A program made the position numbers and the translations under genes. DNA of 64,000 nt from a bacterium (GTDB lineage: Bacteria; Electryoneota; Electryoneia; Electryoneales; Electryoneaceae): positions 3,104,001-3,168,000 of the forward strand of contig CAXXKJ010000002.1 of NCBI GenBank assembly GCA_963675295.2. The letters are read 5' to 3'. Under the pieces are notes generated by a model. The model ran no database searches. It was not told the DNA's origin and saw only the letters and a program-made list of their open reading frames with translations. Positions 1 to 25,003 of the stretch are shown here, one piece after another (the stretch's first letter is position 1; each line of letters starts with the position of its first letter).

Positions 1-1427
1 ACCTCACCATTAGGACCCCATTCCGGGTCGTAATCGCTGTAACGGTCGTCAGTAAGCTTGGCGATGCTCTCCACATCGCCGACGTTGAACACATACAAGT
101 CCGTCTGTCCGTCCGCATACCCGGAGAACAGGATGCGGCTTCCATCCGGTGACCAGCTCGGGCTGAACAGTCCATCAAGGCCGAACTTGTACTCGCCGGT
201 GATTTCACCGTCGTCCACGTTCAACGTGTACAGCGCATCCTCGCCCCCGTCCTCCGCCACGAACGCGATCGACCGTCCATCCGGCGACCAGTCAATCCAC
301 GGCCGCAGCCACAACAGCTGCTCGAACAGGTACACCCCGCCGCCGCCGCTGACAACCTTTTCCTCGACTTCCCCGGTGACCGTGTTCACCAGGTACATGC
401 TCATGTAATCGTCTTTGTCGGAGAGCATGATCAGTCGGTCACCCTCCGGCGACAGGGCCGGCGACGTGTTGACGAAGTTGTACCACTCCTCGTGGTCGGT
501 GATCCGAACCGCGAAATCTTCCGGGGATTCGAAATGTGCTGCGGTCGGCCAGATCTGGCGTTTCAGGTGCTTGTGCCAGCGTTCGGACAGCTCTTCCAGG
601 TCGTACCCGAGCACGTCCTTGACCGCCGTGCCGAAATTCCTCCGGCTGCGAACCTTGCGCAGCAGTTCGCCGACCTTTTCCGGGCCGTACCGTTCCTCGA
701 GGAAATACAGCAGCGACTGGCCGCCCTTGTAAATGAAGTAGCCCTGCAGGTAATCCAACGGCATCAGGTAATCATTGATGATCGCGTCGCGGATGTACAT
801 GTCCGCTTCGTTGCCCCAGCCGTAGCGGCTTTCATATTCGGCGATGCCTTCAATGAACCACAGCGGCAACGGCAACCGGCTGATTCCGGTGAGGATGCTC
901 TGCACCCCTTCGCCGTAGAGCATGCGCAGCATCACGGCATGCGTCAGCTCGTGATGGATCACGTGCCGAAACATCGAGTTCGATCCCTGGAACGGAATCA
1001 CGACGCGGTTTTTGAGGAATTCGGTGAAACCACCGGTGGATTCGCTCGGCGTACCACCGCTGACATTGTTGTTCTGGAACGAGTTGTGGCTCGGAAAGAC
1101 GATGATCGAGATCCGGCCCTCGAGGGTATAATTCCACGAGTCCTCAATTGCGACCAGCGCCTCTTCCGCTTCCCAGCCGGTAAATTCGGCCGCTTCGTAA
1201 TACTCTTGCGGGTAGTAGATATCGAAGTGTTCGGTCTTCAGGTAGTACCACGTAAAGTCGCGGTAATTGACCTTGTTCTGGCCGAAGTACTGCGCGTTCG
1301 CAGCTGGTACCTGCAACAGCAATGCAAGCAGCAGGAGGCCGGCCAGCCAGCCGAAGGTGCGGAACCGGGAGTGCGCGGCACCAAAGGTCAGGGGGTCAGT
1401 GCGATGAAGAGAGCGTCTGCGCGTCAA
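1..1427 (-). CDS. Secreted peptidase-MA-like/PD40 (TolB-like) repeat protein, partial (runs off left edge)
   Basis: Not in ORF track; read by hand. Signal peptide, then QYFGQNKVNY..TEHFDIYY, GGFTEFLKNRVVIPF, HELTH (HExxH), and PD40-like SPSWSPDG/PEWGPNG repeats. TTG start is approximate. Confidence 0.75.
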   Translation of the reverse strand, partial: MTRRRSLHRTDPLTFGAAHSRFRTFGWLAGLLLLALLLQVPAANAQYFGQNKVNYRDFTWYYLKTEHFDIYYPQEYYEAAEFTGWEAEEALVAIEDSWNYTLEGRISIIVFPSHNSFQNNNVSGGTPSESTGGFTEFLKNRVVIPFQGSNSMFRHVIHHELTHAVMLRMLYGEGVQSILTGISRLPLPLWFIEGIAEYESRYGWGNEADMYIRDAIINDYLMPLDYLQGYFIYKGGQSLLYFLEERYGPEKVGELLRKVRSRRNFGTAVKDVLGYDLEELSERWHKHLKRQIWPTAAHFESPEDFAVRITDHEEWYNFVNTSPALSPEGDRLIMLSDKDDYMSMYLVNTVTGEVEEKVVSGGGGVYLFEQLLWLRPWIDWSPDGRSIAFVAEDGGEDALYTLNVDDGEITGEYKFGLDGLFSPSWSPDGSRILFSGYADGQTDLYVFNVGDVESIAKLTDDRYSDYDPEWGPNGE

Positions 1428-7851: not shown

Positions 7852-7863
7852 CCGGAGGATGAG

Positions 7864-8292: not shown

Positions 8293-8332
8293 AGCGGTCG
8301 CGGCGGACCGGCACATCCAGTTCGGGATCTCG

Positions 8333-11164
8333 ATGAAGTTTACCACGAAAATCCTGATGATGCCGCTGGCGGCACTGCTTGCGTTGACAACGATTTTCGG
8401 GTTGTTGTGGCGCACCGGTACCACCACCCTGCAGCAGTATGACCTCATCCAGGAAGAGCACGTCCATGCTCTCGAACTCAGCCACAAGATGGAAAAGCTG
8501 GCGATTGAGATTCGCCAGAATCTTGCCGATGCAGCCACGGTCGGCGATCCGGACCGTGTCCTCGAAGCGGACAGCCTCGCACGTGAATTTCGCTCCGATC
8601 TGGAGGAATTCAAGAGCATTCCCAGTGTTGACGTCGCCAGCATCACCGTCGTCAGTGCCACCTTCAGCGAATATTACGACCACGCGCGCAACACGTCATT
8701 GCGGATGCTGGATCAGGAACTGAGTGACGACCTGATCGCGGAAGCGATCCAGATGAACGCCGACTTTGAGCAACTGGTGGACCAGCTCGATGTCGCCACT
8801 CAACGCCGTCAACAGGGCATTGCGGACGCGTTCGACGTCGCCCGCGAGAGTCTGCAACACTCGGGCAAGGGGATCAGCCTGACCATTCTCGCGTTGCTAC
8901 TGGTGTTGCTGGCAGTGTCTTTCGCAGCGATAGCGTCGGTGTTGCGTCCGCTCCGACGTTTGATGAACGCGACCGAGGCGATCACTCGTGGCGACCTGAA
9001 CGCGAACATCGATTACGACTGCAAGGACGAGATGGGTCGTTTGGCCGACTCGTTCCGGCACATGCAGACCAGCCTGATTGCGGACATCGAACGCCGCGAG
9101 AAGATGGAAGCGGCGATCCGTGACAGCGAAAAGATGTACCGTCTGCTGGCGGACAACAGTTCGGATGTCATCTGGACGATGGACCGGGAAGGCCGGTTCA
9201 CCTACTTCAGTCCGTCCGTGCATCGTCACCTCGGCTACACCCCTACCGAAGCTATCGGGCTGACGATGGAGGATCTGTTTCCGGATACCCAATGCGTCGA
9301 ATTTCGTGCGGCCACAGAACAGTTGTTTGACCGCAAGAATGTTCGTCACGATTCCGTCCAGGACACCAAGCTGCTGCGCCGCAAAGACGGCAACACCATC
9401 TGGTCGGAGATTACCGCCAACCTGTTGATCGACGAAACGGGCGAGGCGGTTGGCTTGAGCGGTGTCGCGCGTGACATCACCGACCGCAAGCTGGCACAGG
9501 AAGCGCTGCGTGAAAGCGAAGAACGGCTGCGTTCCATTTTCATGAACAGCACGCTCGGCATTTTTCGCACCACTCCGCAGGGTAAGGTTATCGCCGCGAA
9601 TCCAGCCGCTGCTGAGATGTTCGGATACGAGGACCCCGAGGAAACCGCGCGTGAGATTGACGACATCTCGCAGGAATTGTACGCGGACCCGGAAGATCGT
9701 GTCTGGGTGATGGAAGCGTTACAACTCAACGGGCAGATGAACGCCGAGCTGATGTTCCGCCGTCGTGGCGCGGACGATTCCCACTTCCCCGCTCAGCTCA
9801 ACTTGTGGACGGTAGCCAACGAAGACGGCAGCATCCGTTGCATCGAGGGCATGATCGAGGACATCACCGACCGCCGCCAGTTGCTGGAAGCGGTGCGGCA
9901 GAGCGAGGAACGGCTGCAGCTCGCGTTTGACGCCGCCAATGACGGGTTGTTTGATCACAACCTGAAGACTGGCACGATGTACCTCAGCCCACGCTATTAC
10001 AGCATGCTGGGGTATGAGCCGGGCGATTTCGAACCGAGCATGAACAAGGTCATCGAGCTGCTGCATCCGGATGATTTTGAAAAGGGCCCGCAGGCGTTCG
10101 AAAAACACCGGAAGACGGGCGAACCATACGATCTGGAAGCCCGTTTCCGTCACAAGAACGGCGAGTGGATCTGGATTCATACCCGCGGCAAGGTGGTCGA
10201 GTGGGACGAAGATGGTGAGCCGTTGCGCTTCGTCGGCACCAACGTTGACATCACCAAGCGCAAGCAGGCCGAAGAAGAGCTGAAGCTGGCGCAGCAGGAA
10301 CTGCTGGACGCCGCCCACAACGCCGGCATGGCCGAGATTGCGACCAGCGTGCTGCACAATGTCGGCAACGCATTGAACGGCGCAATCACCTCGACGACGG
10401 TGATGGATAAAACGCTGAAACACACGCGTCTCAGCCATCTCACCCGTCTCGCCGGCCTGATCGACCAGCACAAGGACGATCTCGCGAACTTCGTCGCCAC
10501 CAGCGAACAGGGCAAGAAGCTGCCGCAGTTCTTCAACCAGTTGAGCGAAGTCATTTCCGGCGAACACGCCCGCATCAAGGACGAATTAAAGTCTTTGGAG
10601 AAGAGCCACGAACACATCCGCCAGATCATCGCGCTGCAACAGCAGTATGCAGGCATGCCGGGCTACAAGGAGGATGTGTACGCGGCGGATTTGGTCAATG
10701 ACGCGGTGCAGTTGTTCGGGGCGTCGTTCCAGCGGCACAGCATCAAGTTCAAGGTCGACCGTCCGAAGAATTTGCCGGCGGTACATGTTGAAAAGCACAA
10801 GGTGCTGCAGATCCTGATTAACCTGCTGAAAAACGCGCGCGACGCGGTGCGCGACACGGATCGCAGTGACCGCGAGATCACGGTGCACATCCATCAGAAC
10901 GGCACCGATGATCTGAAGATCGAGGTGAAAGACAACGGTGTCGGGATCCGGGACGAGGACATGCAGAAGATCTTCGGCTACGGATTCACCACCAAGCGCG
11001 ACGGGCATGGTTACGGCCTGCACGGTTGCGCCAACAGTGCCCGGGAGATGGGCGGTGAACTGACAGCCAGCAGCGAAGGGGCGAACAAGGGTGCTACCTT
11101 CACGCTGACGCTTCCACTGGAAGAAACCGAGGATCAACGTGCCCGAACCGCAGACGTGGAATAA
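8333..11164 (+). CDS. Membrane sensor histidine kinase, HAMP + 3 PAS
   Basis: Two TM segments, HAMP (DEMGRLADSF), three PAS ending DITDR/DITKR, H-box VLHNVGN, NLLKNA, DNGVGI, GHGYGL. Confidence 0.92.
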   Translation: MKFTTKILMMPLAALLALTTIFGLLWRTGTTTLQQYDLIQEEHVHALELSHKMEKLAIEIRQNLADAATVGDPDRVLEADSLAREFRSDLEEFKSIPSVDVASITVVSATFSEYYDHARNTSLRMLDQELSDDLIAEAIQMNADFEQLVDQLDVATQRRQQGIADAFDVARESLQHSGKGISLTILALLLVLLAVSFAAIASVLRPLRRLMNATEAITRGDLNANIDYDCKDEMGRLADSFRHMQTSLIADIERREKMEAAIRDSEKMYRLLADNSSDVIWTMDREGRFTYFSPSVHRHLGYTPTEAIGLTMEDLFPDTQCVEFRAATEQLFDRKNVRHDSVQDTKLLRRKDGNTIWSEITANLLIDETGEAVGLSGVARDITDRKLAQEALRESEERLRSIFMNSTLGIFRTTPQGKVIAANPAAAEMFGYEDPEETAREIDDISQELYADPEDRVWVMEALQLNGQMNAELMFRRRGADDSHFPAQLNLWTVANEDGSIRCIEGMIEDITDRRQLLEAVRQSEERLQLAFDAANDGLFDHNLKTGTMYLSPRYYSMLGYEPGDFEPSMNKVIELLHPDDFEKGPQAFEKHRKTGEPYDLEARFRHKNGEWIWIHTRGKVVEWDEDGEPLRFVGTNVDITKRKQAEEELKLAQQELLDAAHNAGMAEIATSVLHNVGNALNGAITSTTVMDKTLKHTRLSHLTRLAGLIDQHKDDLANFVATSEQGKKLPQFFNQLSEVISGEHARIKDELKSLEKSHEHIRQIIALQQQYAGMPGYKEDVYAADLVNDAVQLFGASFQRHSIKFKVDRPKNLPAVHVEKHKVLQILINLLKNARDAVRDTDRSDREITVHIHQNGTDDLKIEVKDNGVGIRDEDMQKIFGYGFTTKRDGHGYGLHGCANSAREMGGELTASSEGANKGATFTLTLPLEETEDQRARTADVE

Positions 11165-12566
11165 CCGTCGCATTCTCCTCGTGGACGACCAGGAACAGAT
11201 CCACGAGGATTACCGCAAGATTCTCACCCCGGACGACTCCCACGGGCAGGAAGTCGACCAGCTCGCCAGCGATTTCTTCGGCGACGACGACAGCGAACCG
11301 TCCGCTGGCAACAGCAACCAAGTCGAACTCCCATCATTCCAGCTCGAATCCGCCTACCAGGGCCAGGAAGCGCTGGAAATGGTCAAACAGGCGCTGGAGG
11401 CGGGAATTCCGTACTCGCTGGCGCTGGTGGATGTGCGCATGCCGCCAGGCTGGGACGGCATCGAGACCATCGACCGCATCCTTCGTGTCGACAAGGACAT
11501 CCAGATCGTCATCTGCACCGCCTATGCAGACTATGTCTGGGAGGATATCCACGACACCTTCGGCGCGCGCGACAACATCCTCTTCATGCGCAAGCCGTTC
11601 GACGCAACCGAGGTTCAGCAGCTAGCGTGCACATTGACCGAAAAGTGGAACCTCGCACGCCAGGCGAGGATGAAGGTCGAGGAGCTGGAAACCCTCGCTG
11701 ACCAGCGTACGCGTGAATTGCAGCAGAGCAACGAGGAACTGCAGGACGCGATGACCGACCTGCGCCGGACGCAAGTGCAGTTGATTCAGTCGGAGAAGAT
11801 GGCATCATTGGGTTCGATGGTCGCCGGTGTCGCGCATGAGATCAACACGCCGATCGGTGCCGTTGCCAGCATGCACAGCACGCTCGTCACCGCGATCAAG
11901 CGCATGAACGACATCCTCAATGACATGTGCGACGAATCCGACCCGCGGCTGAAAAAGCTGGAAAAGACGATGAAGGTGATCGGCGACGCAAACCGGGTGA
12001 TTTCGTCCGGCACCGAACGTGTCACCACCATCGTCAAGCGGCTCAAGAGTTTCGCGCGGCTGGATGAGGCCGAGCTGAAGACGGTCGATATTCATCAGGG
12101 ATTGGACGATACGCTCGAAATCGCGCATCACGAACTGAAGTACGCGGTGAAAGTGGTACGGGAATACGGCGATGTGCCGGAATTCGCCTGCTACCCGAGC
12201 AAGCTGAACCAGGTGTTCCTCAACCTGTTCATGAACAGCCGCCAGGCGATTGAAACCACGGGCACGTTGACCATCCGCACCCGGGTTGAAAACAATCAGG
12301 TGGTCATCGAAGTCGCGGACACCGGCAAGGGCATCAAGGCGGAGAATCTGAAACGCATCTTCGACCCTGGGTTTACGACGAAGGGTGTCGGAGTCGGCAC
12401 CGGGCTCGGCCTGTCCATCGTGTTCCAGATCATTGAAGAACACTTCGGCACAATTGAAGCCAGCAGCGAAGTCGGGGTCGGGACGACATTTACCATCCGT
12501 TTACCGCTGGATCTGGAAGAACGCATCGAACGCAAGAAGAGGGGCGGCAAACCGCACTCTGCGTGA
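11139..12566 (+). CDS. Receiver-histidine kinase hybrid
   Basis: LLVDD..DVRMPPGWDG..CTAY..KPFD receiver; EKMASLG..AHEINTP H-box; GTGLGL G2 box. Confidence 0.92.
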   Translation: MPEPQTWNNRRILLVDDQEQIHEDYRKILTPDDSHGQEVDQLASDFFGDDDSEPSAGNSNQVELPSFQLESAYQGQEALEMVKQALEAGIPYSLALVDVRMPPGWDGIETIDRILRVDKDIQIVICTAYADYVWEDIHDTFGARDNILFMRKPFDATEVQQLACTLTEKWNLARQARMKVEELETLADQRTRELQQSNEELQDAMTDLRRTQVQLIQSEKMASLGSMVAGVAHEINTPIGAVASMHSTLVTAIKRMNDILNDMCDESDPRLKKLEKTMKVIGDANRVISSGTERVTTIVKRLKSFARLDEAELKTVDIHQGLDDTLEIAHHELKYAVKVVREYGDVPEFACYPSKLNQVFLNLFMNSRQAIETTGTLTIRTRVENNQVVIEVADTGKGIKAENLKRIFDPGFTTKGVGVGTGLGLSIVFQIIEEHFGTIEASSEVGVGTTFTIRLPLDLEERIERKKRGGKPHSA

Positions 12567-12729
12567 GGTGAACGGTCAATAGCGGAGCGCTCTCCGGTGC
12601 TCCCGAACGTTCCCCGGATTCCTCCCCCCCGCACATCCCGTCCTATACTCACGTTTAGCTTTTTTTCAGCCGTTTTCTACGGCACCACAGGGTTCATCAC
12701 GATCGGTTTCGATTGCGGTGGGAGAACGC

Positions 12730-14052
12730 ATGAAGCCATTCCTTAAGACTTTTTCCATTGGATTCACTGTCATCCTGCTGGCGGGTCTCGTGCTTTGTCC
12801 GGAGCGTGTTTTCGCCGGGGACGATGACACAATCTACCAGCCGTCCATGACTCACGCGGACAGCGTGAAAGCGTGGCAGGAAGCGGTAGACAACGACAAC
12901 GCGCTGGATGTCACCGGCGACGTGATCGGCGAAGTTGTCTTTATCCCGTTGCGAGTCGTGTTCACCGGTGTCCGGGAAGGCGCACGGATCGTCAGCGAGG
13001 AGCAGCTGATCGCCAAGGTGGACGATTTCCTCTCGTCCGATGATGGCACCCGCCGAGTCGTGCCAATCGCTTCGCCGACCACCGGCCTCGGCGCGAAGTT
13101 CAAGTACAAGCCGGACCCGACGATCAAGGCGAATATCGCGCTGCTCGGGGCGTGGTGGATGTACGGCCGCCAGACCTACCGTCTGCACGCCGAAAAATGG
13201 CCGTTGCTGCCGCATGTCACCGGCCACCTCGCCGGCGAATACCATCTCTATCCCGACGAACGGTTCTATGGCATCGGGATGGCGACGAAGAAGTCAGATG
13301 AAGTGTTCTACCGGCACGAAGCGACATTCGCCGAAGCCGGGCTTGGATTCGACCTGCATCGCTGGCTGGAACTGACCGCACATGGCGAATACCGCGCGAA
13401 CAACCTCTACAACAGCGTGCTGAAGCCAACCGTCAACTTCGACACCTACGGTAGTGTGCAGAACCTGGCGCCGTATTCGGGCCGGATTGACATGGCCAGC
13501 ACCACACTGGCACTCGAGTTTAACACCGCGGTCAACCGTGCACGCCCGATGAACGGTTTCGTCACCAGGGTTTCCGGCGGATATCACAACCAGGTGGATG
13601 GCGACGATTTCGGCTACTGGGACTCTCGTGTCCTGATCGGGAAATACTTCCACATCATGTACGAGCGGGTGCTGTATTTCGACATCGCCGGCCAGTTCAC
13701 CGAACCGTTGACCGATCGTGCGATTCCGTTCTTTGAATTGCCGGAGTTGGGTGGCCGGGAAACGTTACGCGGCTTCAAGCGCGGACGCTACAGCGGCGAG
13801 CACACGGTACTGGGAACGGTCGAATACCGCATGCCGATCCGTGACATCTGGTCGGAATCGGGCTTCGATTTCGCCTTCTTCGCCGACTGGGGCAAGGTTG
13901 TGCAGGATGATGTCAGCGACTGGGACATGGATTCGATGCAGATCGGGTATGGATTCAGCTTGCAAACGTGGACGCTGGCCGGTGCGGCCGCGCGTCTCGA
14001 CGTCGGTTTCAGCCGTGAAGGCACACGGCTTTACTTCACCATGGGGTTGTGA
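12730..14052 (+). CDS. Omp85 (BamA/TamA-family) beta-barrel without recognisable POTRA domains
   Basis: Signal peptide; loop-6 motif LGGRETLRGF..GRYSG; VEYRMPI; FADWGKV; terminal strands LYFTMGL. Confidence 0.82.
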   Translation: MKPFLKTFSIGFTVILLAGLVLCPERVFAGDDDTIYQPSMTHADSVKAWQEAVDNDNALDVTGDVIGEVVFIPLRVVFTGVREGARIVSEEQLIAKVDDFLSSDDGTRRVVPIASPTTGLGAKFKYKPDPTIKANIALLGAWWMYGRQTYRLHAEKWPLLPHVTGHLAGEYHLYPDERFYGIGMATKKSDEVFYRHEATFAEAGLGFDLHRWLELTAHGEYRANNLYNSVLKPTVNFDTYGSVQNLAPYSGRIDMASTTLALEFNTAVNRARPMNGFVTRVSGGYHNQVDGDDFGYWDSRVLIGKYFHIMYERVLYFDIAGQFTEPLTDRAIPFFELPELGGRETLRGFKRGRYSGEHTVLGTVEYRMPIRDIWSESGFDFAFFADWGKVVQDDVSDWDMDSMQIGYGFSLQTWTLAGAAARLDVGFSREGTRLYFTMGL

Positions 14053-14054
14053 TC

Positions 14055-15719
14055 ATGAAAACTCGCGACGCCATGATTGTGCTGCTCGTTTTATTGACGC
14101 TGACAGGTTCGTGCTTCGCTGGGGCGTACACCCCTCCCCCGCCGGTGCCGGATGACAGTGCGCCAATTCCGAAGCCGGAGTTTTCCGGCGCGCTGGATGA
14201 CTTCGCGGAAGGTATCAACTACGAATTCATTTACAGCCTGAAGAATACGCTGAACATCAGCCGTCAAATCCGTTGGCTGACCGATACACCGAAGCAGGCG
14301 TTGAACGTCAACGCGTTCGGCGAGGTGGACGATAATTCGTGGTTCACCAACCGGAACGCGCTGCACCCAATGAGCCTCGACGAAATCTCTCGCGGGGCGT
14401 GCCGTGGTGACGGTCCGGACACGGAACACACGTGGATCATCAAGCGTGCGAAAGCGGAAGGTGTCACTCCCGGCTTTCACATCAAGGACGCCCGCGGCGA
14501 CCGCTACGTCATCAAGTTCGACCCGATCGGCTACGGTGGGCTGAATTCCGGCGCGGATGCCTGTGGCGCGATATTCTTTTACGCGGCAGGCTACAACGCC
14601 CCTGAGAACTACATCGTCTACTTCGATCCCTCGATCCTGCAGCTTGATCCGGACGGCGTATCGTTCACCGATTCCGATGGCCGCAAGCGGCATATGACCG
14701 AAGAGGATCTGGAGGCCGTACTGGACCGTGTCAACATTCTGCCGGACGGCCGCATCCAGTGCCTCGCCAGCAAGTACATCCAGGGCGATCTGCTCGGTCC
14801 GTTTTCGTTCAAGGGCACGCGCGAGGATGACCCCAACGACTTCGTCCCGCACCATCACCGGCGCGAGTTGCGCGGGCAGAAGGCGTTCGCGGTGTGGGTC
14901 AATCACTACGACGCCAAGGGCGCGAACTCGATGGACGCCTACGTCGGCGAAGACGGCGATGGGCATGTCGTCCACTACATGATGGACTTCGGCACCGTGC
15001 TCGGTTCGGGCGGACGCGGCCCGTATCCGCTCTTCCGTGGTTACGAGGACGAAATCCCGACTGGTCCGTTGATGCGGAAGATTGTCACCCTCGGTCTCGA
15101 TGTCCGCGACTACGAAAAGCCGGACCCGGTGCTGTATCCGAGTGTCGGCCGTTTACGCAATGCGTCACTGAACCCGGACAAGTACCGCACTGTGTTCCCG
15201 AATCCGGCGTACGACAACGCCACCGACCTCGATATGTACTGGGGTACGAAACTGGTGACGTCGTTCACCGACGAACAGATCCGGGCGATCATCGAAACTG
15301 GTCCGTATCCGCCGGGCGGGGTTGACCACCTGGTGACCGTGCTCAGCGAACGCCGTGACATCATCGGCCGCACTTACTTCGGCCGGGTCAATTGCCTTGA
15401 CCGGTTCGAGATGGCCGACACGGACGTACTCGCGTTCGACGATCTCTGGGTCGAGATGGGCTACAGCGCGGCGGACGATGTCGTGTACAAATACGAACTG
15501 CAGAATGAGGACGGCGAAGTCCTCTCCTGCGGCGAATTTGCCGGCACCGAGCTCGAGCTGCCTCTGATCCCGGACAGGCTGGGTGAACACAACCAGATAC
15601 GAGTGGAGTTGCGTCTGAAGCGGAGTGATGAAAAGAAGTTCGGGCGATACGTTCGAGTATGGCTCGAAGACGATCTCGCAGGCGGGTATCGTCTCCTCGG
15701 TGTGGAACGGGAGGAATAG
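14055..15719 (+). CDS. Secreted protein with protein-kinase-like (PI3/4K/HipA-like) fold
   Basis: Hydrophobic N-terminal signal; KAEGVTPGF, YVIKFD, HYDAKGAN (DxKxxN) and MDFG motifs in kinase order. Confidence 0.6.
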   Translation: MKTRDAMIVLLVLLTLTGSCFAGAYTPPPPVPDDSAPIPKPEFSGALDDFAEGINYEFIYSLKNTLNISRQIRWLTDTPKQALNVNAFGEVDDNSWFTNRNALHPMSLDEISRGACRGDGPDTEHTWIIKRAKAEGVTPGFHIKDARGDRYVIKFDPIGYGGLNSGADACGAIFFYAAGYNAPENYIVYFDPSILQLDPDGVSFTDSDGRKRHMTEEDLEAVLDRVNILPDGRIQCLASKYIQGDLLGPFSFKGTREDDPNDFVPHHHRRELRGQKAFAVWVNHYDAKGANSMDAYVGEDGDGHVVHYMMDFGTVLGSGGRGPYPLFRGYEDEIPTGPLMRKIVTLGLDVRDYEKPDPVLYPSVGRLRNASLNPDKYRTVFPNPAYDNATDLDMYWGTKLVTSFTDEQIRAIIETGPYPPGGVDHLVTVLSERRDIIGRTYFGRVNCLDRFEMADTDVLAFDDLWVEMGYSAADDVVYKYELQNEDGEVLSCGEFAGTELELPLIPDRLGEHNQIRVELRLKRSDEKKFGRYVRVWLEDDLAGGYRLLGVEREE

Positions 15720-15720: not shown

Positions 15721-16959
15721 GTGACGCTTCAGACCTCCTCCCGGATCCTCGTTCTGACCCTCGCCGTGGCGGTGTTGCTGAACGGTTGCGCGTCAAAAGG
15801 ACTGCTCACCGACCGCTACGACGCGGACGAAGTGGCTGTACCGCGGCTACTGCCCGAGGACCTGCACAATCACAACCCGCGCTTTATCGTGATCGGCGAT
15901 GAACAGAAGGGCCGTAGAGTCATCGAGGATTTCTACCGCAAGGAGAATTGGGCGACGTGGTGGCAGCTGGCGGTTCCGTTCTACCAGATCTACCTGTTGT
16001 ACAACGGCATCTCTGGCGGGATCAATTACCTCCGGCACGTGCCGGACGCCGGTGACGAAACGCGCACCATGATGCGGGACGTGCTGTATCGTGACGCGAA
16101 GGAGTTCGGCGCGACGTTCGTCCTTGAAACCGGCGACATCGCCGCTGCGGACGGACGCTACCCCGACCACTGGGAGGTGTTTCTTGAGGGCAAGAAGTGG
16201 TCGCATCCGTTCCTGTCCGAAATTCCCTACGTGCCGACCATCGGCAATCACGAGTGGGCCAACGACACCACCTACGCGTGGCCGAACTACCAGGCGGTGT
16301 TCGACTATCCGCGATTTTACGCGATGGAATTCAAGTCAGCCGTGTTGATCGTGCTGGACTCCAATTTTCTCGTCGACCAGTGGGAGCTGATCCCGGACGA
16401 CGAGCAGGAGAAGCTGTACAAGGAATGGTTCGTCAGCGGCGAAGGTACGTCGTGGCTGGAAAAAACCCTGGCGAAGTATGCCGATAAACCGTTCAAGATT
16501 GTCAGCATGCACCACCCCCCCATTACGTACGGCTGGCACTGGGTTGACTGGTACAAGGACCATTTTGGCCGTAACCTGACAGACAAGCGTCGTGAGCTGC
16601 TGCAATTGTTCGCGGACAGTGGCGTGCAGGCCGTGTTCTCCGGACACGAACACATTTACCAGCACAATCCGACCCACCTGTTATCCGGTGGCAATACGCA
16701 CACTATCCACTTTTATACCAGCAGCGGCGGCGGAGTACCGATTCGGTCCGTGCCACCTGTCGAACAGTTGGAGGAGCTGCGGTACAAGTATCGCCAGGAA
16801 GGGTTGGGCGCTCATCAGCCAACAATCTTGAGTGAGTACCATTATTGTCTGGTGTCTGTCGAGGGTGACCGGCTGATCATCGACACGATGGTCGTGGACC
16901 GTGACGATCCAGAGCATGAATCGAGTTTGTTCGAACGGACGGTGATAGACGCACCCTGA
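15721..16959 (+). CDS. Calcineurin-like metallophosphoesterase, probable lipoprotein
   Basis: LLNGC lipobox-like; IGDEQ, TGDIA, IGNHE, MHHP and SGHEH metal motifs; GTG start after GGAGG. Confidence 0.87.
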   Translation: MTLQTSSRILVLTLAVAVLLNGCASKGLLTDRYDADEVAVPRLLPEDLHNHNPRFIVIGDEQKGRRVIEDFYRKENWATWWQLAVPFYQIYLLYNGISGGINYLRHVPDAGDETRTMMRDVLYRDAKEFGATFVLETGDIAAADGRYPDHWEVFLEGKKWSHPFLSEIPYVPTIGNHEWANDTTYAWPNYQAVFDYPRFYAMEFKSAVLIVLDSNFLVDQWELIPDDEQEKLYKEWFVSGEGTSWLEKTLAKYADKPFKIVSMHHPPITYGWHWVDWYKDHFGRNLTDKRRELLQLFADSGVQAVFSGHEHIYQHNPTHLLSGGNTHTIHFYTSSGGGVPIRSVPPVEQLEELRYKYRQEGLGAHQPTILSEYHYCLVSVEGDRLIIDTMVVDRDDPEHESSLFERTVIDAP

Positions 16960-17020: not shown

Positions 17021-18361
17021 ATGACCAATCCATTCCAGGTGATTTCGGGGATCAAGCGCAAGGAATTGCCGCTGGCGCTGCTGATGTTCGCGTATTTCTT
17101 CCTCGTGATCACGAGCTTCTGGATTCTCAAGCCGATCAAGAAGTCGTTGTTCATCTCGTACTACGACGTCGGCGGATTCAATCTGTTCGGCTGGCTGATG
17201 AACGCCTCCCAGGCCGAACTGCTGGCGAAAGTGCTTAACATGGTCGTCGCGGTGGTCGCGGTGACGGTGTTTACGTTGCTCGTGCGACGCATGCGACGGC
17301 AACAACTGACCTACGTTTTCTCCGCCTTTTTCATCATCAGTTACGGTCTTTACACCTTCCTGCTCTCGAACCAGAGCGGCGCGGTGGTGTGGTCATTCTA
17401 CCTCTTCGGCGACCTGTACAGCACGTTGATGGTCGCCACCTTCTTCGCGTTCATGAACGACAGCGTCAATGCCAACGAAGCAAAGCGGATGTACGGCCTG
17501 GTGGTGCTCGGCGGGGTCACCGGCGGCGTGTTTGGTACCAGTTCGCTTCGGCTGTGGATTGACGCGCTGTCGTCGTCCCAGTGGATGTGGGTCCTGATTG
17601 CGGTTGCGTTTGTGATCCTGGTGATCGCGTATGCGGCCGGCCGGCTGGTTGAAAAGCGACCGTTGACCGCGGCGCCCGCACCAGCCCCGAAGCCGAAACC
17701 AGCGAAGGACGAACAGAAATCGTCCAGCAGGAATGCGGCGTTCGAAGGCGCGGCGCTGGTGTTCCGCAGCAAGTATTTGCTGGCGATTGTGGCGATTGTC
17801 GGGTTGTACGAGATCGTCAGCACCATCCTCGACTTTCAGTTTACCGCCACAGTGGCACATTTCAAGGACGGCGCGGAGATTGGTGAACACTTTTCGACAG
17901 TGTTCGCGATCACCAACTGGACCTCGCTGCTGGTGCAATTCTTCCTCACCTCGATCATTCTGTCACGGTTCGGGGTGATGGTCGCATTATCCATCCTGCC
18001 GATGATCATGATTTTTGCGTCTGGTGGATTCCTGGCGGTGCCGATCCTGTGGATGGGCAGCATGTTGAACACGGCGGACAACGGCTTCAGCTATTCAATC
18101 AACCAGTCGGCGAAGGAAACGCTGTATGTCCCGACCGACCGTGATACGAAGTACAAGGCGAAAGCGTTCATTGACATGTTTGTCCAACGGTTCGCAAAGG
18201 CGATAGCGGTCGGAGTGTCGCTGCTGGTGACCAGCATTTTCGCGTCGTTCGAGAGTATCCGTTGGCTGTCTTTGTTCACGATTGCGATTGTCGTGCTGTG
18301 GTTGATCGCGGTACGTTATGCCGGACGGGAGTTCAAGCGGTTGACGCAGGAGTCGAAGTAA
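17021..18361 (+). CDS. NTT/Npt1-Npt2 (TLC ATP/ADP translocase family) nucleotide transporter
   Basis: ~12 TM; ILKPIKKSLF, EAKRMYG, LDFQF, YSINQSAKETLYVP, KYKAKAFIDMFVQRF. Confidence 0.85.
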   Translation: MTNPFQVISGIKRKELPLALLMFAYFFLVITSFWILKPIKKSLFISYYDVGGFNLFGWLMNASQAELLAKVLNMVVAVVAVTVFTLLVRRMRRQQLTYVFSAFFIISYGLYTFLLSNQSGAVVWSFYLFGDLYSTLMVATFFAFMNDSVNANEAKRMYGLVVLGGVTGGVFGTSSLRLWIDALSSSQWMWVLIAVAFVILVIAYAAGRLVEKRPLTAAPAPAPKPKPAKDEQKSSSRNAAFEGAALVFRSKYLLAIVAIVGLYEIVSTILDFQFTATVAHFKDGAEIGEHFSTVFAITNWTSLLVQFFLTSIILSRFGVMVALSILPMIMIFASGGFLAVPILWMGSMLNTADNGFSYSINQSAKETLYVPTDRDTKYKAKAFIDMFVQRFAKAIAVGVSLLVTSIFASFESIRWLSLFTIAIVVLWLIAVRYAGREFKRLTQESK

Positions 18362-18414: not shown

Positions 18415-19146
18415 GTGATGAAGTCGTCTCGCTGGTTTGTGATCGGTTTGGTTTTTGTGATCGGGATCGTGTTGCTGCAGCCGGTGCCGGCGCAGTCTCA
18501 GAACCGTGGCTGGGAACGGTTCTACGAGGAGAATCTCGACCATTTCGTGCAATTCGGCCTCGAGAACGGTGTCAACCTCGCATGGGCACACCGGTTCCAG
18601 GAAACGAACTTCCTGCGCTACGGGTTGGATCTGCGGCTTGAGGACGGCACTCGTGACGACAAGTGGGTCAGGCCGGACACCACCACCTGGCAAAACGAGT
18701 CGACCGATCAATTCAATATCCGGCTGCATGTCGACTACCTGAAGCCCGTTTATCCGTATGAGGCGGTTCGTCTGTATATCGGCGCGGGTCCGTTGTTTGG
18801 CTTGACTTGGTCCAACGACGAATTTTCGGAGCCGGTGGATCCAAATCTCGGCCTGCCGAACGAGAAACGCACGAGCGAGTACCAATCCTGGGAGATGGGC
18901 GCACGGGCGCTTGTCGGCGGCGAATATGCGCTCAACAGCCGTCTCAGCTTCTTCGCCGAGGTCAGCTTCGATGTTGTCCATATCTGGTCAAAAAGCGAGC
19001 AGAAGCGGAACGACCTGAGGTACGATGCCAACAGCGATTCGTATAGCATGGAATACTCGGTGTACACCGTCGAGAACAAGGACTGGGACATCGACATGAG
19101 CAACGTGATGATCGGCGTGACCTTCCGCTACGGCGAGGCACCCTGA
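18415..19146 (+). CDS. Small outer-membrane beta-barrel protein (paralog 1)
   Basis: Signal peptide; LYIGAGP, GARALVGGEY, MIGVTFRY strands. Confidence 0.7.
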   Translation: MMKSSRWFVIGLVFVIGIVLLQPVPAQSQNRGWERFYEENLDHFVQFGLENGVNLAWAHRFQETNFLRYGLDLRLEDGTRDDKWVRPDTTTWQNESTDQFNIRLHVDYLKPVYPYEAVRLYIGAGPLFGLTWSNDEFSEPVDPNLGLPNEKRTSEYQSWEMGARALVGGEYALNSRLSFFAEVSFDVVHIWSKSEQKRNDLRYDANSDSYSMEYSVYTVENKDWDIDMSNVMIGVTFRYGEAP

Positions 19147-19526
19147 TCACACGGTGCTACAGTGTTGCTGTGATATAGCGTGCGTGATCCAGTCCCGGGT
19201 TGCGCACGTTTTCTCTCTCCGGGTAGCCCCGCTTTCACGCCTGTGTGTTCTTTGCCCCACAGCCGTATCCTCCGCCCCACGCCTGCCACCGGTCGATCTG
19301 GCGGATGGCTCCTCGCTGCCCGAGCCTGAGAGACTTCGCATCCTTGTTGTATGAACAAACTTGACGGCTATCTCCCTGCTTTTGGGAGTCATTGGCATCT
19401 CCTTTGCGTGCTTTTCGGGCAGAATTGGAGGGAACAACCATCGTTTTCAAGCGTTCGTCATCATCTATGGAGATTCAATTCGATTGATAGATTCGGAGGG
19501 ATTTTTTTAACTTGGAGAGGGGCATC

Positions 19527-20246
19527 ATGAACACGAAGCATGGTTTGCTTGCTGGAATCATTGTACTCTTGCTATTAGTAATGGCATTACCCGTATCTTC
19601 AGGACTTTTTGAAGACGATGAAGAGTATTACAGCGATGATCACCCGAATATGATCCAGTTTGGACTGGATGAGACGGTCACCCTGGCTTGGGCACACCGG
19701 GCGTTCGGTGAGTACCTGATCCGCTACGGTGTCGACCTCAACTATTGGGGTTCGGACGAGGAGATAACCCGGACCTACGCGGACCCGGACACGACGCTGT
19801 TCGACGCGGGTAGCGGCCACGACTATTACACCAGCCTGCATGTCGATTTCATCAAGCCGTTCGAACCTTACAAGCAGGTGCGTGTGTATGTCGGCGGTGG
19901 CCCGTTCTTCAGCTGGGGTGACCACGAAACCCGTGACAAGGTTTTGATTGATCAGGACTACAATCTCCCTGACTATTTCGCCAAATACACGACGCAAACC
20001 AGCCGTGTCGGTGCGCGTGCGCTGGTCGGCGGTGAGTTTGCGATCAATCAACGCGTTGGTGTCTTCTTCGAAACCGGGATCAAGGCGTACCAGGAATGGA
20101 AAGCGTACAACAACTACGAGAAACAGCCCCTGTTTGACCCGGTTGCTCAGTCCTACTACTATGCTGATCACAAGCGGGAGTACGATTATTCCCGTTGGAA
20201 TGTGAACATGGACAACGTGATGATCGGAATCACGTTCCGCTACTAA
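19527..20246 (+). CDS. Small outer-membrane beta-barrel protein (paralog 2)
   Basis: Signal peptide; VYVGGGP, GARALVGGEF, terminal MIGITFRY; visibly homologous to 18415-19146. Confidence 0.7.
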   Translation: MNTKHGLLAGIIVLLLLVMALPVSSGLFEDDEEYYSDDHPNMIQFGLDETVTLAWAHRAFGEYLIRYGVDLNYWGSDEEITRTYADPDTTLFDAGSGHDYYTSLHVDFIKPFEPYKQVRVYVGGGPFFSWGDHETRDKVLIDQDYNLPDYFAKYTTQTSRVGARALVGGEFAINQRVGVFFETGIKAYQEWKAYNNYEKQPLFDPVAQSYYYADHKREYDYSRWNVNMDNVMIGITFRY

Positions 20247-20403
20247 GTTTCAGTTGATGGATCTGTTCTGAACGCGCCCAATCGCGATTCAGACGTCACC
20301 CGGCTCCCGGATTGCCCCATGCACGGTTCGGAGCCGGGTGATTCACGTTGTACCTTGCCGTGCGAATCGAACCCCGAATTTGCAGACAGCCGAACGCGTC
20401 ATC

Positions 20404-23265
20404 ATGCAGAAACCCCTGTTGCGCAAAGCACTCAACCTCGAGCCCGGTGAGGGGAAACGGGCGGCGTTGATGTTCAGCTATATCTTCCTGCTGATCGCTA
20501 CGTTGCTCGTGGTCAAGCCGGTGCGCAACTCGCTGTTCCTCACCCATTTCGGCATTGAAATGCTGCCGTACGCGTTCCTGCTCGTGGCGGTGGTATCCGG
20601 CGTGTTCGTCGCGATTTACACCCGTGTTGCGAACAAGGTCCGGCTGGATAGATTGATCCAGTATACGCTGGGCAGCAGTGTCGCGACAATCATCATCCTC
20701 TGGCTGTTGTTGCAGCTGCACTATGAGGCCGGGTGGTTCTTCTTCCTGCTCTATGTCTGGGTGGCGATCTTCGGGGTGCTGGTCACGACACAGTTCTGGC
20801 TGCTCGCGAATTATGTGTTCAACGTCCGCGAGGCGAAACGCATCTTCGGCCTGCTCGGCGCGGGCGGGATCGCCGGTGGCATCTTCGGCGGCTATTTCAC
20901 CAATATCCTCGCCCCGTTCGCCGGTAGCGAGGACTTGCTGCTGTTTGGTGCGTTGTTCCTGATCGGGTGCATGGTGCTGGTGCAGTTTGTCTGGTCCATG
21001 GGCGCGCAGGAAGCCTACCGCGAACAGACCCAGCGCCGCCGCAAGCGTCAGAGCGCGGACTTCGAAGGCGCAAACCCACTGCAGATTGTCTTTGGTAACC
21101 GCTATTTAACCCTGCTCGCGACGCTGATTGGAATCGGTGTCATCATCGCCAACCTCGTCGACTACCAGTACAGCGCGATCGCGACTTCGGTGATTACGGA
21201 CGAGGACAAGCTGACCGCCTTCTTTGGGTTCTGGCTGTCAACGTTGAGCGTCTTCTCGCTGGTAATTCAGCTGTTGCTAACCAGCCGCGTACTGCGACGC
21301 TACGGTGTCGGCGGATCGTTGTACTTCCTCCCCGGCGGTGTTCTCGTCGGATCGATCATGGTGCTGATCTCCGGCGGATTGACCTCGGCGGTGATGATCA
21401 AGCTGTTCGAGGGCGGGTTCAAGCAGTCGATCCACAAGGCCGGGCTGGAACTGTTGTGGTTGCCGATTCCGACCTCTGTGAAGAACCGGGTCAAGGCGTT
21501 CATTGATATCTTTGTCGACAACACCGCCACCGGCATTGGCGGCCTGCTGCTGATCCTGCTCGCCGACCAGCTCGGCTGGGGAATTGGCGGGGTCAGCGGG
21601 CTGATTATCGGGCTGGTCGCGGTGTGGCTGGTGTTGAATGTGATCGTGCGGCGTGAGTACGTGCAATCCTTCCGCACGGCGATCGAAAAGCGCAGCATCC
21701 GTCTCGATCAGCAGGTGGTCAACGCCCAGGATCCGGCGCTGCTGGAAACAGTCATTCCGGCGCTGGAAACCGGCAACCAGAAGCAGGTGCTGTACGCGCT
21801 GGACCTGATCGAGCATGTGCGGCACGAGGAGATCAAGAAACGACTCACCGCCGTGTTCGAACGGCATCCCTCGCGGGATGTGATCACCCGTGTGTTGCAC
21901 AATGCGTTGCACTATGACGATCTCGACCTGCGTGACATGCTGCAGCCGTACCTGGAGCATGAGGACGCCGAGATCCGGGTCGCGGTGGTGACGTACCTGG
22001 TGACCTGGGCGGACGATCAGGCTGCGGCGTTGACGGAGCTGCTCGCCAATAACAGTGTGCGTGTGCGCATGGCGGCGCTACGTGTGACAGCAGAACTGGG
22101 AAGGCACCAGAAGAATGTCCGCACCGCAATCGATTTTCAGCGGCAGTTTGAAAGCCTGCTGATGCTGTTCGACGAACAGACGGCAGGCGAGGAACCGGAT
22201 GAGGAGTTGATCAGCGCGTTGCGTGTCGAGCTGGCGGAGGTGCTGGGTGCGGTGAACCTGCCGGAGCTGTACCCGTACCTGCACATGCTGCTCGCGGATG
22301 AGTCGGTTCCGGTGCTGCGTGCGGCGGTGCGTGCGGCAGGATCAACGCAGTCGGACGAATTCCTCTACACGCTGGTCGCGCACCTGAACACCAAGTATGT
22401 GCGCAAAACCGCCCGTGACGCGCTCGCGATGTACGGCGAGGCGCAGATCCCGATGTTCATCGATCGGCTCAACGATCCCACCGAGAACCAGTACATCCGG
22501 CTCAGCATTCCGGGCGTGCTCGCACGGATCGGGACTCAGGCCGCCGCCAAGGCGTTGCAGGACAATCTCGTCCAGGACAACATTCACTTGCGGCACGAAT
22601 GCATCCGTTCGTTGAACCGGCTGCGCAACGAGTACGAAGATCTGCGGCTCGATCGTTCGCAGCTGGACGAAAACCTGCTCGAGGAAGCGCGAACGTATTA
22701 CTTCACACTCGAGATACTGCAGCAGCAGGTGGATGGGCGGGATAGCGTTGCGTCGCGTTTCGCGTCTGAGAATTTTCCGCGTGCCCGTAAGCTGCTGGTC
22801 CGGGCGTTGGAAGAGCGGCTCGATCGTAATCTCGAGATCATCTTCCGGCTGCTGGGACTGCGTTACGTGCCGGAAGACATGAAGAACGCGTACATGCAGG
22901 TGACCGGTTTGAAAATGGACTTGCGTGCGGACGCAATCGAGTTTCTCGACAACGTGCTCGATCAGAAGTTGAAACGGGTTGTGTTGCCGATGGTGGAAAC
23001 GCCGAACGTGGATGTTAAACTCGAGCATGGACGCGAGTTGTTCAGCCACGATCCGCCGTCCGGCGAGTATTGCCTGCAGATGCTGCTCGAAGGCGACGAC
23101 GATTGGCTCAAGGTGTGTACTTTGTATGCGATCGGCGAGAGTGGTGACCGGTCGTTGAGCCCGATGGTTGAGGCGCATCTGATGGCCAGCGAGCGTATCG
23201 TTCGGGAAACAGCTGATCTCGCCTACCGCCGGCTGAATATTGAACTCGACAAGATGGGAGCGTAA
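20404..23265 (+). CDS. NTT-family nucleotide transporter fused to HEAT repeats
   Basis: VKPVRNSLFL, REAKRIFG, VDYQY, KQSIHKAGLELLWLP, RVKAFID, followed by HEAT-like repeats (DAEIRVAVV, SVRVRMAAL, IVRETADLA). Confidence 0.88.
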   Translation: MQKPLLRKALNLEPGEGKRAALMFSYIFLLIATLLVVKPVRNSLFLTHFGIEMLPYAFLLVAVVSGVFVAIYTRVANKVRLDRLIQYTLGSSVATIIILWLLLQLHYEAGWFFFLLYVWVAIFGVLVTTQFWLLANYVFNVREAKRIFGLLGAGGIAGGIFGGYFTNILAPFAGSEDLLLFGALFLIGCMVLVQFVWSMGAQEAYREQTQRRRKRQSADFEGANPLQIVFGNRYLTLLATLIGIGVIIANLVDYQYSAIATSVITDEDKLTAFFGFWLSTLSVFSLVIQLLLTSRVLRRYGVGGSLYFLPGGVLVGSIMVLISGGLTSAVMIKLFEGGFKQSIHKAGLELLWLPIPTSVKNRVKAFIDIFVDNTATGIGGLLLILLADQLGWGIGGVSGLIIGLVAVWLVLNVIVRREYVQSFRTAIEKRSIRLDQQVVNAQDPALLETVIPALETGNQKQVLYALDLIEHVRHEEIKKRLTAVFERHPSRDVITRVLHNALHYDDLDLRDMLQPYLEHEDAEIRVAVVTYLVTWADDQAAALTELLANNSVRVRMAALRVTAELGRHQKNVRTAIDFQRQFESLLMLFDEQTAGEEPDEELISALRVELAEVLGAVNLPELYPYLHMLLADESVPVLRAAVRAAGSTQSDEFLYTLVAHLNTKYVRKTARDALAMYGEAQIPMFIDRLNDPTENQYIRLSIPGVLARIGTQAAAKALQDNLVQDNIHLRHECIRSLNRLRNEYEDLRLDRSQLDENLLEEARTYYFTLEILQQQVDGRDSVASRFASENFPRARKLLVRALEERLDRNLEIIFRLLGLRYVPEDMKNAYMQVTGLKMDLRADAIEFLDNVLDQKLKRVVLPMVETPNVDVKLEHGRELFSHDPPSGEYCLQMLLEGDDDWLKVCTLYAIGESGDRSLSPMVEAHLMASERIVRETADLAYRRLNIELDKMGA

Positions 23266-23273: not shown

Positions 23274-23705
23274 ATGCTGACCACGGTCGAAAAAGTCATC
23301 TTTCTGCAGGACATTGATGTCTTCCAGAGCATCAGCACGTCCGACCTCGCCTATCTCGCCGCGATCACGGAGGAGATGGAAGCGGACGAGGGCAGCGTGC
23401 TGTTCAAGGAAGGGGACGCGTCCGACTCGATGTTCATGGTGATCGAGGGCACCGTCCGCTTGCTGCGGAACGACGCCGAGGTGATGACCGCCGGGTTCAA
23501 GGACGTGTTCGGCACGTGGGCGCTGTTCGACGACGAACCGCGCATGGTTCGCGCGGAGGTGACGGAACGCGCTCGTCTGCTGCGCATCGACAAGGACGAC
23601 TTCATCGACCTGCTCGCCGATCACGTGCAGATCACCCAGGGTGTGTTCAAGGCGATGGTCGGACGTTTGCGTGGATTGGCCAGCCGTTTCAACAAGCAGG
23701 ACTAG
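23274..23705 (+). CDS. Cyclic-nucleotide-binding domain protein
   Basis: LTTVEKVIFLQDIDVF, LFKEGD, MFMVIEGTV, FGTWALFDDEPR. Confidence 0.88.
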   Translation: MLTTVEKVIFLQDIDVFQSISTSDLAYLAAITEEMEADEGSVLFKEGDASDSMFMVIEGTVRLLRNDAEVMTAGFKDVFGTWALFDDEPRMVRAEVTERARLLRIDKDDFIDLLADHVQITQGVFKAMVGRLRGLASRFNKQD

Positions 23706-24986: not shown

Positions 24987-25003
24987 GTTCTAGAGAAATT
25001 CAA

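Follow-up and report, generated by a model that had tools for sequence, protein, structure and literature searches.

The window studied here is a stretch of 64,000 nucleotides from a bacterium of the Electryoneaceae (phylum Electryoneota; assembly GCA_963675295.2, contig CAXXKJ010000002.1, positions 3,104,001 to 3,168,000 of the forward strand). At 14049..15719 (+), as a single open reading frame (ORF), it carries the gene of an exported kinase-like protein, which represents a new family inside a known kinase-like superfamily and whose setting in the cell is new among bacteria. A kinase-like fold in the predicted model, conserved catalytic residues, export signals and the linkage of the gene with genes for an Omp85-family barrel and for NTT-type nucleotide carriers together form the basis of the mechanism that we propose. 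Specifically, the protein would be an active, nucleotide-dependent phosphotransferase of the cell envelope, tied to its Omp85 partner and fed with ATP by the NTT carriers, a reading to which we give about an even chance.

Predicted fold and catalytic residues of the kinase-like protein

The AlphaFold2 model of the protein, built from 30 sequences, reached a mean predicted local distance difference test score (pLDDT) of 88.3 and a predicted template-modelling score (pTM) of 0.88, and displays the bilobal kinase fold of protein-kinase-like (PKL) superfamily members. When this model was used as a Foldseek query against the PDB, 11 matches were obtained at E <= 0.001, all of them to Fam20 proteins or to CtkA; these top rows were followed by HipT, PI4KIIalpha and ordinary kinases, with SidJ as a weak match (E 6.7e-3). 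A VIA-align run against 48,161 representative chains gave the first place to CtkA (Z 14.0, 228 residues, 3.8 Å), followed by DrFam20C (12.9), Hydra Fam20 (12.8), CotH (12.1), PI4KIIalpha (12.0), actin-fragmin kinase (10.8), HipA (10.7) and MavQ (9.9). A second look with the same program returned CtkA at Z 14.8 (237 residues, 4.3 Å), Fam20C at 13.3, PI4KIIalpha at 12.1, CotH at 11.9 and HipT at 11.3, and all 27 rows ranking above the matches to fibronectin type III (FN3) domains were atypical kinase-like folds. The kinase catalytic core proposed in a preliminary description of this DNA, made from the sequence alone, is thus supported by both structural searches with the predicted model, whose top matches are solely kinase-like folds. 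By these scores, enzymes that phosphorylate proteins (CtkA, Fam20C, CotH) are not told apart from those acting on lipids or glycans (PI4KIIalpha, MavQ, Fam20B-like), and since CotH, PI4KIIalpha and MavQ score comparably, a lipid or a glycan is also a possible substrate.

The catalytic motifs are found in kinase order along the protein, with residues numbered from the GTG codon at 14049: the Gly loop K135-AEGVTPG-F143, the beta3 lysine in YVIK156FD, the alphaC acid in SGAD170A, the catalytic loop D288-A-K290-G-A-N293 and D313-F-G315. The codons of the main residues map to 14514-14516 (K156), 14556-14558 (D170), 14910-14912 (D288), 14925-14927 (N293) and 14985-14993 (DFG), all on the forward strand. 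In the model, the Gly loop lies between strands 129-135 and 142-146, K156 ends strand 152-157, D170 is within helix 165-180, the D288..N293 segment runs between helix 277-284 and strand 294-299, and DFG comes immediately after strand 305-311. All five motifs listed in the preliminary description were therefore located as stated there, each on the secondary-structure element expected for it.

To count conservation, 247 members of the family, each 450-700 amino acids long, were aligned with MAFFT. The beta3 lysine K156 is kept in 242/247 sequences, and position 170 is acidic in 240 (Glu in 208, Asp in 32), so that the Asp for Glu substitution pointed out earlier is correct and corresponds to the minority state. 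In the catalytic loop, D288 is kept in 242 members, Lys or Arg at position 290 in 223 and N293 in 238; in the DFG motif, D313 is found in 240, F314 in 230 and G315 in 215, while in the Gly loop G138 and G142 are present in 240 and 228, respectively. Besides the kinase motifs, D264, H268, R272, R275, G181, D395 and W398 are invariant and specific to the family. Poor conservation among homologues, named in the preliminary description as one of two observations that would count against a kinase core, was not what we found, as K156, D288, N293 and D313 are each retained in 238-242 of the 247 sequences. The residues that define the PKL superfamily (beta3 Lys, alphaC acid, D-x-x-x-x-N and the Asp of DFG) are both present and conserved, and, judging from the alignment, the motifs are not due to chance.

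At the level of sequence, no clear match to a known kinase was obtained. A profile comparison by hhalign with nine Hanks-type kinase domains encoded at family loci gave a probability of 10.7% over 70 columns; this weak alignment set H286-x-D288-x-K290-x-x-N293 onto HRDxKxxN and D313FG onto DFG. Pfam returned for the window protein only a chance-level match to DUF7348 (E 0.12), and NCBIfam returned none. PDB sequence searches with the protein, with a 30-row profile and with a 50-row profile of the kinase domain found no kinase, the rows obtained being chance matches, for example to a chitinase, a pyruvate carboxylase and an IgA Fc receptor. Among HipA family profiles, none matched the window protein; HipA_2 (PF20613) matched 7 of 30 members with a best E of 0.01, below the cut-off, and HipA_C (PF07804) matched 2 of 30 with a best E of 0.22. 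The hhalign probability against E. coli HipA was 0.19%, and a HipA_2 search of the genome to which the window belongs gave no match. Likewise, Fam20C (PF06702) had no match at E <= 1 in 30 members, and Pkinase (PF00069) matched neither the window protein nor the 30 members. The nearest named cluster of the ESM Atlas is a bacterial Fam20C-domain cluster (score 0.81), to be taken as a lead only. In conclusion, the model suggests that the protein may work like the atypical kinases of the HipA/CtkA, Fam20, CotH and type II PI 4-kinase (PI4KII) groups; its sequence matched the family profiles of none of these groups.

Translation start, export signal and domain organisation

Starting from the GTG at 14049 the product has 556 residues; the likelier start is the in-frame ATG at 14055 (+), two codons downstream, which gives 554 residues. 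In the context TTG TGA TC ATG AAA, the stop codon of the upstream gene occupies 14050-14052 and the ATG follows after 2 nt. Since the product length from this ATG equals the 554 amino acids of the relative P0001, which is 94% identical to the window protein, ATG 14055 is probably the true start, in agreement with the start adopted in the preliminary description.

A signal peptide with a lipobox-like sequence, ..TGSC22, was read from residues 1-22 (14049..14114, +). The N-terminus contains K4 and R6, then a hydrophobic run and the sequence T-G-S-C22-F-A-G. Tested against the pattern [LVI][ASTVI][GAS]C, the window protein (L-T-G-S-C22) is a partial match with T at position -3, and a possible signal peptidase I site (cleavage between A and G of CFAG) is also present. 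Processing at a partial lipobox, with the lipidation at TGSC considered earlier, and cleavage by signal peptidase I are two possible readings of this N-terminus. Export, proposed there on account of the hydrophobic signal, also fits the family: a hydrophobic segment was seen near the start of 234 of the 237 members whose N-terminus is complete, which argues that the family is exported. This segment is followed by [GAS]C in 159 of the 237 and by a canonical-like lipobox in 124, and 52 have no Cys there; about two thirds of the family are predicted from these N-termini to be lipoproteins, the rest carrying plain signal peptides.

The model supports the following domain plan. The signal (residues 1-22) is followed by an N-terminal extension at residues 23-117 (14115..14399, +), recognised by invariant alignment columns that include the conserved PDD and SSWFTNRN (W98, R102) sequences; some of the Fam20 structural alignments begin within it (model ranges 27..447 and 31..447). 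The predicted protein-kinase-like domain covers residues 118-447 (14400..15389, +), as delimited by predicted fold, conservation and motif register. A C-terminal FN3/Ig-like beta-sandwich, poorly conserved in sequence, would occupy residues 448-556 (15390..15716, +), and model residues 448..544 match many FN3 domains with Z 8-9.

Size and spread of the family

When 8000 candidates were scored, 741 proved to be relatives at E <= 0.001, and the searches also yielded 2509 representatives of 50%-identity clusters, of which 687 at E <= 1e-30. The taxon labels of 80 family loci, some of which are bin labels that look unreliable, include Calditrichota, Zixibacteria, Latescibacterota, KSB1, Marinimicrobia, Krumholzibacteriia, Gemmatimonadota, several Acidobacteriota orders and others. 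None of the 120 listed relatives carries a Pfam domain and all source names given are 'hypothetical protein', just as had been anticipated for the window protein. The 4.8-Mb genome of the window contains one copy of the gene. A second, more distant copy was observed in several genomes of the phylum (G022, G031 and G032), and one locus (L026) has two paralogous kinase-like genes 2 kb apart (5038-6042 and 8137-9111).

Some relatives have additional parts. The 955-residue protein P0254 combines, in one reading frame, a GT4 glycosyltransferase domain (82-396), a hydrophobic segment with a lipobox-like Cys and the complete kinase-like protein (410-954); either the two genes are truly fused or the prediction reads through from one into the other. 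In P0273 (1160 residues) and P0253 (742 residues) the kinase-like part is followed by about 600 and 200 extra C-terminal residues, respectively; P0273, the sole product of a search for longer relatives, has no Pfam match.

Linkage with a gene for a POTRA-less Omp85 barrel

Immediately upstream, at 12718..14052 (+), lies a gene for an Omp85-family outer-membrane barrel protein, whose stop codon overlaps or abuts the start of the kinase-like gene. Its product matches Pfam Omp85 with E 1.3e-15 (58 bits, cut-off 24). The AlphaFold2 model of this protein (pLDDT 86.4) has helices at 49-58, 62-94 and 97-105, followed by 16 strands at 112-442, which correspond to the 16-stranded barrel of the Omp85 family. 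Only the helices at 49-105 precede the barrel, so a POTRA domain is absent from the model, and no POTRA Pfam match was found. Foldseek aligned the model with the BamA barrel (E 4.5e-14) and also with TamA.

This arrangement is widespread in the family. Of the 73 loci whose upstream sequence extends over 1300 bp or more, 69 have an Omp85 homologue on the same strand ending no more than 600 bp upstream of the kinase-like gene, and the intergenic gaps are mostly between -28 and +20 bp (67 loci). The exceptions are L021, L036 and L074, where none was found, and L037, whose Omp85 gene lies about 5 kb upstream. In addition, P0251 (999 residues) joins both partners in a single chain consisting of a signal peptide, a kinase-like part (32-581) and an Omp85 part of the partner type (609-996); the latter matches the partner profile with E 1.8e-45 from profile position 71 and comes without the signal peptide of the partner.

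Complex prediction was carried out with two locus-based alignments, for which 43 of 46 chosen loci were used, L007, L010 and L053 being excluded for in-frame stops. With both alignments the kinase-Omp85 pair reached interface scores (ipSAE) of 0.47, 0.47 and 0.42, against 0.00 for the best control; at least 69% of the contacts agreed between runs and the partner pLDDT was at least 84. Of 80 solved complexes, 58 scored above the pass mark, compared with 2 of 110 mismatched pairs, and passes at 0.60 or under came from only 7 of those 80 solved complexes and from both mismatches. The prediction thus lends weak support to an association of the two proteins.

Linkage with genes for NTT carriers

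Two genes for nucleotide carriers lie downstream on the forward strand. The first (17021..18361, +) encodes an NTT/TLC-type carrier of 446 residues (Pfam TLC, E 3.5e-28) which, by sequence comparison, is a true NTT homologue, since residues 123-444 match the plastid ADP,ATP carrier 9j3j with E 3.3e-11. The second (20338..23265, +) encodes an NTT-HEAT fusion carrier of 975 residues (Pfam TLC, E 9.5e-12; HEAT_2, E 6.4e-19) and is directly followed by a gene for a cyclic-nucleotide-binding protein (23274..23705, +; Pfam cNMP_binding, E 7e-16). Both carriers belong to PF03219, at 99 and 45 bits, respectively, for a cut-off of 21; the equivalog-level TIGR00769 was not reached (84 bits vs 387). These are the only two TLC matches in the whole 4.8-Mb genome; both lie downstream of the kinase-like gene, at a distance of no more than 7 kb, and 14 control genomes gave no TLC match.

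Across the family, a TLC-like gene is present in the flanks of 39/80 loci, and of 28/43 when both flanks are at least 5 kb. In 79 genomes of the phylum, the kinase-like family was found in 22 and TLC in 18; the two occur together in 17, TLC alone in 1, the family alone in 5 and neither of them in 56. Hence 17 of the 18 TLC-positive genomes carry the kinase-like family, and in 15 of the 17 genomes with both, the two genes are on one contig within about 6 kb. Five other genomes, whose kinase locus has no nearby TLC gene, all have an NTT-like gene elsewhere, detected by Pfam in four and by protein search (E 8.7e-28) in one. Furthermore, in one relative, P0259, an NTT-like part (97-415) is connected through a basic linker and a Cys-containing hydrophobic segment to a kinase-like part behind it (436-941); from this order, its kinase-like part would lie outside the cytoplasm.

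Other genes of the cluster

A lipoprotein metallophosphoesterase (15721..16959, +; lipobox LLNGC) is encoded between the kinase-like gene and the first carrier gene; its translation probably begins at a GTG that follows the kinase stop codon by 2 nt. It matches Pfam Metallophos with E 9.6e-11, and the nearest PDB sequence is a purple acid phosphatase (E 2e-4). Homologues were detected at 14/80 loci by tblastn and in 22/81 sources by clustering. A terminator-like hairpin of 14 pairs at 19177..19210 (+), found by a consensus scan whose sites are not enriched over shuffles, possibly ends the Omp85-kinase-phosphoesterase-NTT unit. Upstream, a hybrid histidine kinase (11139..12566, +; receiver-HisKA-HATPase by Pfam) has homologues at 16/80 loci and is a possible regulator of the cluster.

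An unbiased clustering of the ORFs from 81 sources returned the kinase-like protein in 77, Omp85 in 68, NTT in 45, the phosphoesterase in 22, the histidine kinase in 18, a response regulator in 16, a Hanks kinase or TPR protein in 14 and PAP2 in 5. Two further ORFs of the window, a gene for a beta-barrel-like protein of 243 residues (18415-19146) and the ORF at 19512-20246, were considered as parts of the module and rejected, homologues being found at 0/80 loci. PADLOC gave no match for six cluster proteins.

At six loci (L029:7368-8987, L060:7671-9299, L076:3327-4955, L041, L066 and L074) we observed, near the kinase-like gene, a protein that has some five hydrophobic segments in its N-terminal part and ends in a Hanks-type kinase domain; at three loci no more than about 10 bp separate its start from the end of the kinase-like gene. 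If the number of membrane spans is odd, as a crude hydropathy count indicates, this Hanks-type domain could also face outward. A gene for a PAP2-superfamily phosphatase occurs in the flanks at 5/80 loci, upstream of the Omp85-kinase pair at four (L006:3617-4561, L010, L017 and L027) and downstream of the kinase-like gene at L065. PAP2 enzymes have their active sites on the periplasmic side.

In the window, the region upstream of the cluster (4948-12566) also contains a sigma-54 activator with PAS (4948-6432), an unannotated ORF of 466 residues (6451-7851) and a multi-PAS histidine kinase (8333-11164) that precedes the hybrid histidine kinase. The G+C content falls to 0.40 at 24001-26000 and to 0.46 at 38001-42000, vs about 0.59 elsewhere, and the first dip overlaps an ORF of 659 residues with a type IX secretion C-terminal sorting domain (25090-27069). 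Finally, two long ORFs of 612 and 1035 residues overlap on opposite strands at 27323-29161 (+) and 27341-30448 (-).

Relation to known systems

The best structural match of the window protein is CtkA of Helicobacter pylori (Z 14.0-14.8 over 225-237 residues, covering both lobes), with the HipT (11.3) and HipA (10.7) kinases also matched, and faint HipA_2 matches were seen in 7 of 30 members. Unlike in these proteins, the catalytic domain of the window family is accompanied by a signal peptide or lipobox, an N-terminal extension of 95 residues and an FN3 domain, and its genes sit beside Omp85 and NTT genes, with no antitoxin. The Fam20 proteins (Fam20C, the Golgi casein kinase; Fam20A; Fam20B) align with Z 12.6-13.3 over about 250-266 residues, partly into the N-terminal extension, and gave the top Foldseek E-values (5e-5); both families have a signal sequence and work, or would work, outside the cytosol. 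However, structurally aligned residues are 6-10% identical, the Fam20 proteins are enzymes of the eukaryotic Golgi, and the window family has an Omp85 barrel and NTT carriers as partners. The CotH spore-coat kinases (Z 11.9-12.1) and the lipid kinases of the type II PI 4-kinase/MavQ kind (PI4KIIalpha 12.0-12.1; MavQ 9.9) are also similar in fold, whereas no match to their Pfam families was found and the domain additions and gene context of the window family are different.

With Omp85-dependent type V secretion (TpsB/TpsA and type Vd PlpD) the cluster shares a 16-stranded barrel gene placed beside a possible client, and once fused after it; in contrast, the modelled barrel of the window has three helices instead of POTRA, and the protein that it may handle lacks a TPS domain and is, in most members, a predicted lipoprotein. 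As to the carriers, both the single-domain and the NTT-HEAT architectures of the window are described for free-living bacteria by Major, Embley and Williams 2017 (PMC5381601), including a cNMP-binding gene next after NTT-HEAT, while kinase-like or Omp85 neighbours, present in the window, are not mentioned in the part of that article available to us. According to the same part, the functions of fused NTT forms were unknown, and the cyanobacterial ones uncharacterised.

Our literature searches for an exported or periplasmic kinase with Omp85 or NTT partners returned nothing relevant and no description of the family or system; a search for the paper on the plastid NTT1 structure found none. The available portion of a Fam20 review has nothing on bacteria outside its reference list. 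A 2026 preprint on kinase-like families in oral bacteria (10.64898/2026.09.18.752743) deals, in its accessible part, with other families (SEAE1, POGI1 and SrfA-N), and its supplementary lists may include the window family.

Discussion

We infer from the observations described above that the kinase-like protein is catalytically active and that ATP is its donor. Located outside the cytoplasm, it would transfer phosphate from a nucleotide, and the POTRA-less Omp85 barrel would bind it, either docking or carrying it. NTT carriers are exchangers, and characterised class I carriers also return phosphate. In the window organism they would supply the ATP: given a millimolar ATP level in the cell against none outside it, the exchange would proceed outward, down the ATP gradient, with ADP returning. 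Where present, the lipoprotein metallophosphoesterase would remove the phosphate again or clear nucleotides. The final compartment would be either the periplasm or the cell surface; the link with NTT favours the periplasm, and the passenger-then-barrel order of P0251 fits both alike.

The same elements may form a dedicated extracytoplasmic phosphorylation system, in which NTT and NTT-HEAT would export ATP and retrieve ADP, with phosphate, the Omp85-docked kinase of the new family would mark an envelope target, and exported phosphatases would reverse the mark. The exported phosphoesterase and the PAP2 phosphatases of five loci would fit such a reversible mark. This fuller scheme is tentative, and we hold it for somewhat less probable than the phosphotransferase reading itself. 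The one case of phosphorylation in the periplasm that our searches returned, that of lipid A by LpxT, is linked in the title of its report to undecaprenyl phosphate synthesis (PMC2229476).

Several observations weigh against an ATP-fed phosphotransferase tied to Omp85. The window protein has the less frequent Asp at the alphaC position; the score of the kinase-Omp85 complex falls in the weak band; and the fusions P0251 and P0259 are known from one representative each and may be gene-calling read-through. The phosphoesterase is present at only 12 of the 43 well-flanked loci, and the NTT link is not universal, as 15 of these 43 have no TLC gene nearby and 5 of the 22 family-positive genomes of the phylum have no NTT by Pfam or protein query. 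The latter five are 86-94% complete and are split into 210-660 contigs, and 3 of their kinase matches are incomplete. Since related genomes are not independent, the co-occurrence counts overstate their statistical weight and are to be read as linkage rather than as a probability. Moreover, the periplasm is generally regarded as free of ATP, and ATP present there would be lost through porins. Lastly, the characterised NTTs all come from parasites whose genomes are reduced or from organelles of endosymbiotic origin, and, in the available part of PMC5381601, the roles studied are uptake.

Among the alternatives, a secreted effector or toxin kinase is the least improbable, even if we consider it unlikely. 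In that case, the Omp85 protein would serve as an exporter of a type V-like (two-partner) kind, by which the kinase would be released or exposed on the cell surface, to act on or in other, ATP-rich cells, as CtkA and HipA-type toxins do. The structural ranking, with CtkA as best match and HipA and HipT near, is consistent with this explanation, as are the position of the Omp85 gene beside its cargo, which is the layout of two-partner secretion, and the kinase-then-Omp85 order of P0251, which is the passenger-barrel order of type Vd autotransporters. However, the roughly two thirds of members with a lipobox-like Cys would remain anchored, TpsB transporters bind their cargo by the POTRA domains that the Omp85 model lacks, and the kinase-like protein has no TPS or other Pfam domain. 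In addition, no conserved small, immunity-like neighbour emerged from the clustering of 81 sources, PADLOC found no match, and the co-occurrence with NTT (17/18) would be left unexplained. If instead the protein kept the fold for other chemistry, it could catalyse AMPylation as SelO does, glutamylation as SidJ does, or ATP hydrolysis that drives the Omp85 partner. Kinase-like folds are known for such reactions, SidJ is among the weak Foldseek rows, and the tight Omp85 coupling (69/73) would suit an energised membrane machine; nevertheless, the motif set and its spacing match those of canonical phosphotransferases and the closest folds (CtkA, Fam20C, CotH and PI4KIIalpha) are all kinases, so that we judge this explanation improbable, slightly below the effector.

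We place at the same low level the capture and import of nucleotides, in which the lipoprotein would bind external or periplasmic nucleotides by the barrel in the manner of SusD-SusC, the phosphoesterase would trim them and the NTT would import them. In this group of phyla, a barrel plus a lipoprotein is the common layout for nutrient uptake, periplasmic nucleotidases are among the members of the metallophosphoesterase superfamily, and the NTT, phosphoesterase and kinase-like genes are clustered. On the other hand, Omp85 barrels resemble the BamA and TamA insertases and are not known as nutrient channels, the phosphoesterase is missing from most loci, and a mere binder would not be expected to keep the catalytic Asp, the Asn and the DFG Asp in 238-242 of 247 sequences. 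In favour of import, uptake of nucleotides is what the available part of PMC5381601 reports for characterised NTTs. Very improbable, in our estimate, is a pseudokinase without activity, whose role would be purely structural, as partner or lid of the barrel: the Asp in place of Glu at alphaC and the presence of the pseudokinase Fam20A among the structural matches are compatible with it, but pseudokinases usually lose the catalytic Lys, Asp, Asn and DFG Asp, which are kept here in 96-98% of the 247 members.

Returning to the dedicated phosphorylation system outlined above, its existence, if real, would give bacteria a counterpart to the Fam20C system of the Golgi. A first function would likewise be provided for the NTT carriers of free-living bacteria, whose role was an open question in 2017 in the part of PMC5381601 available to us and is now made directly testable by the gene linkage. 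An intact exported kinase family linked to carriers of the ATP/ADP type would, in turn, challenge the view of the periplasm as ATP-free. The family counts 2509 representatives across several poorly studied phyla and has neither a name nor a Pfam model, so that a whole class of envelope enzymes would have been invisible to annotation.

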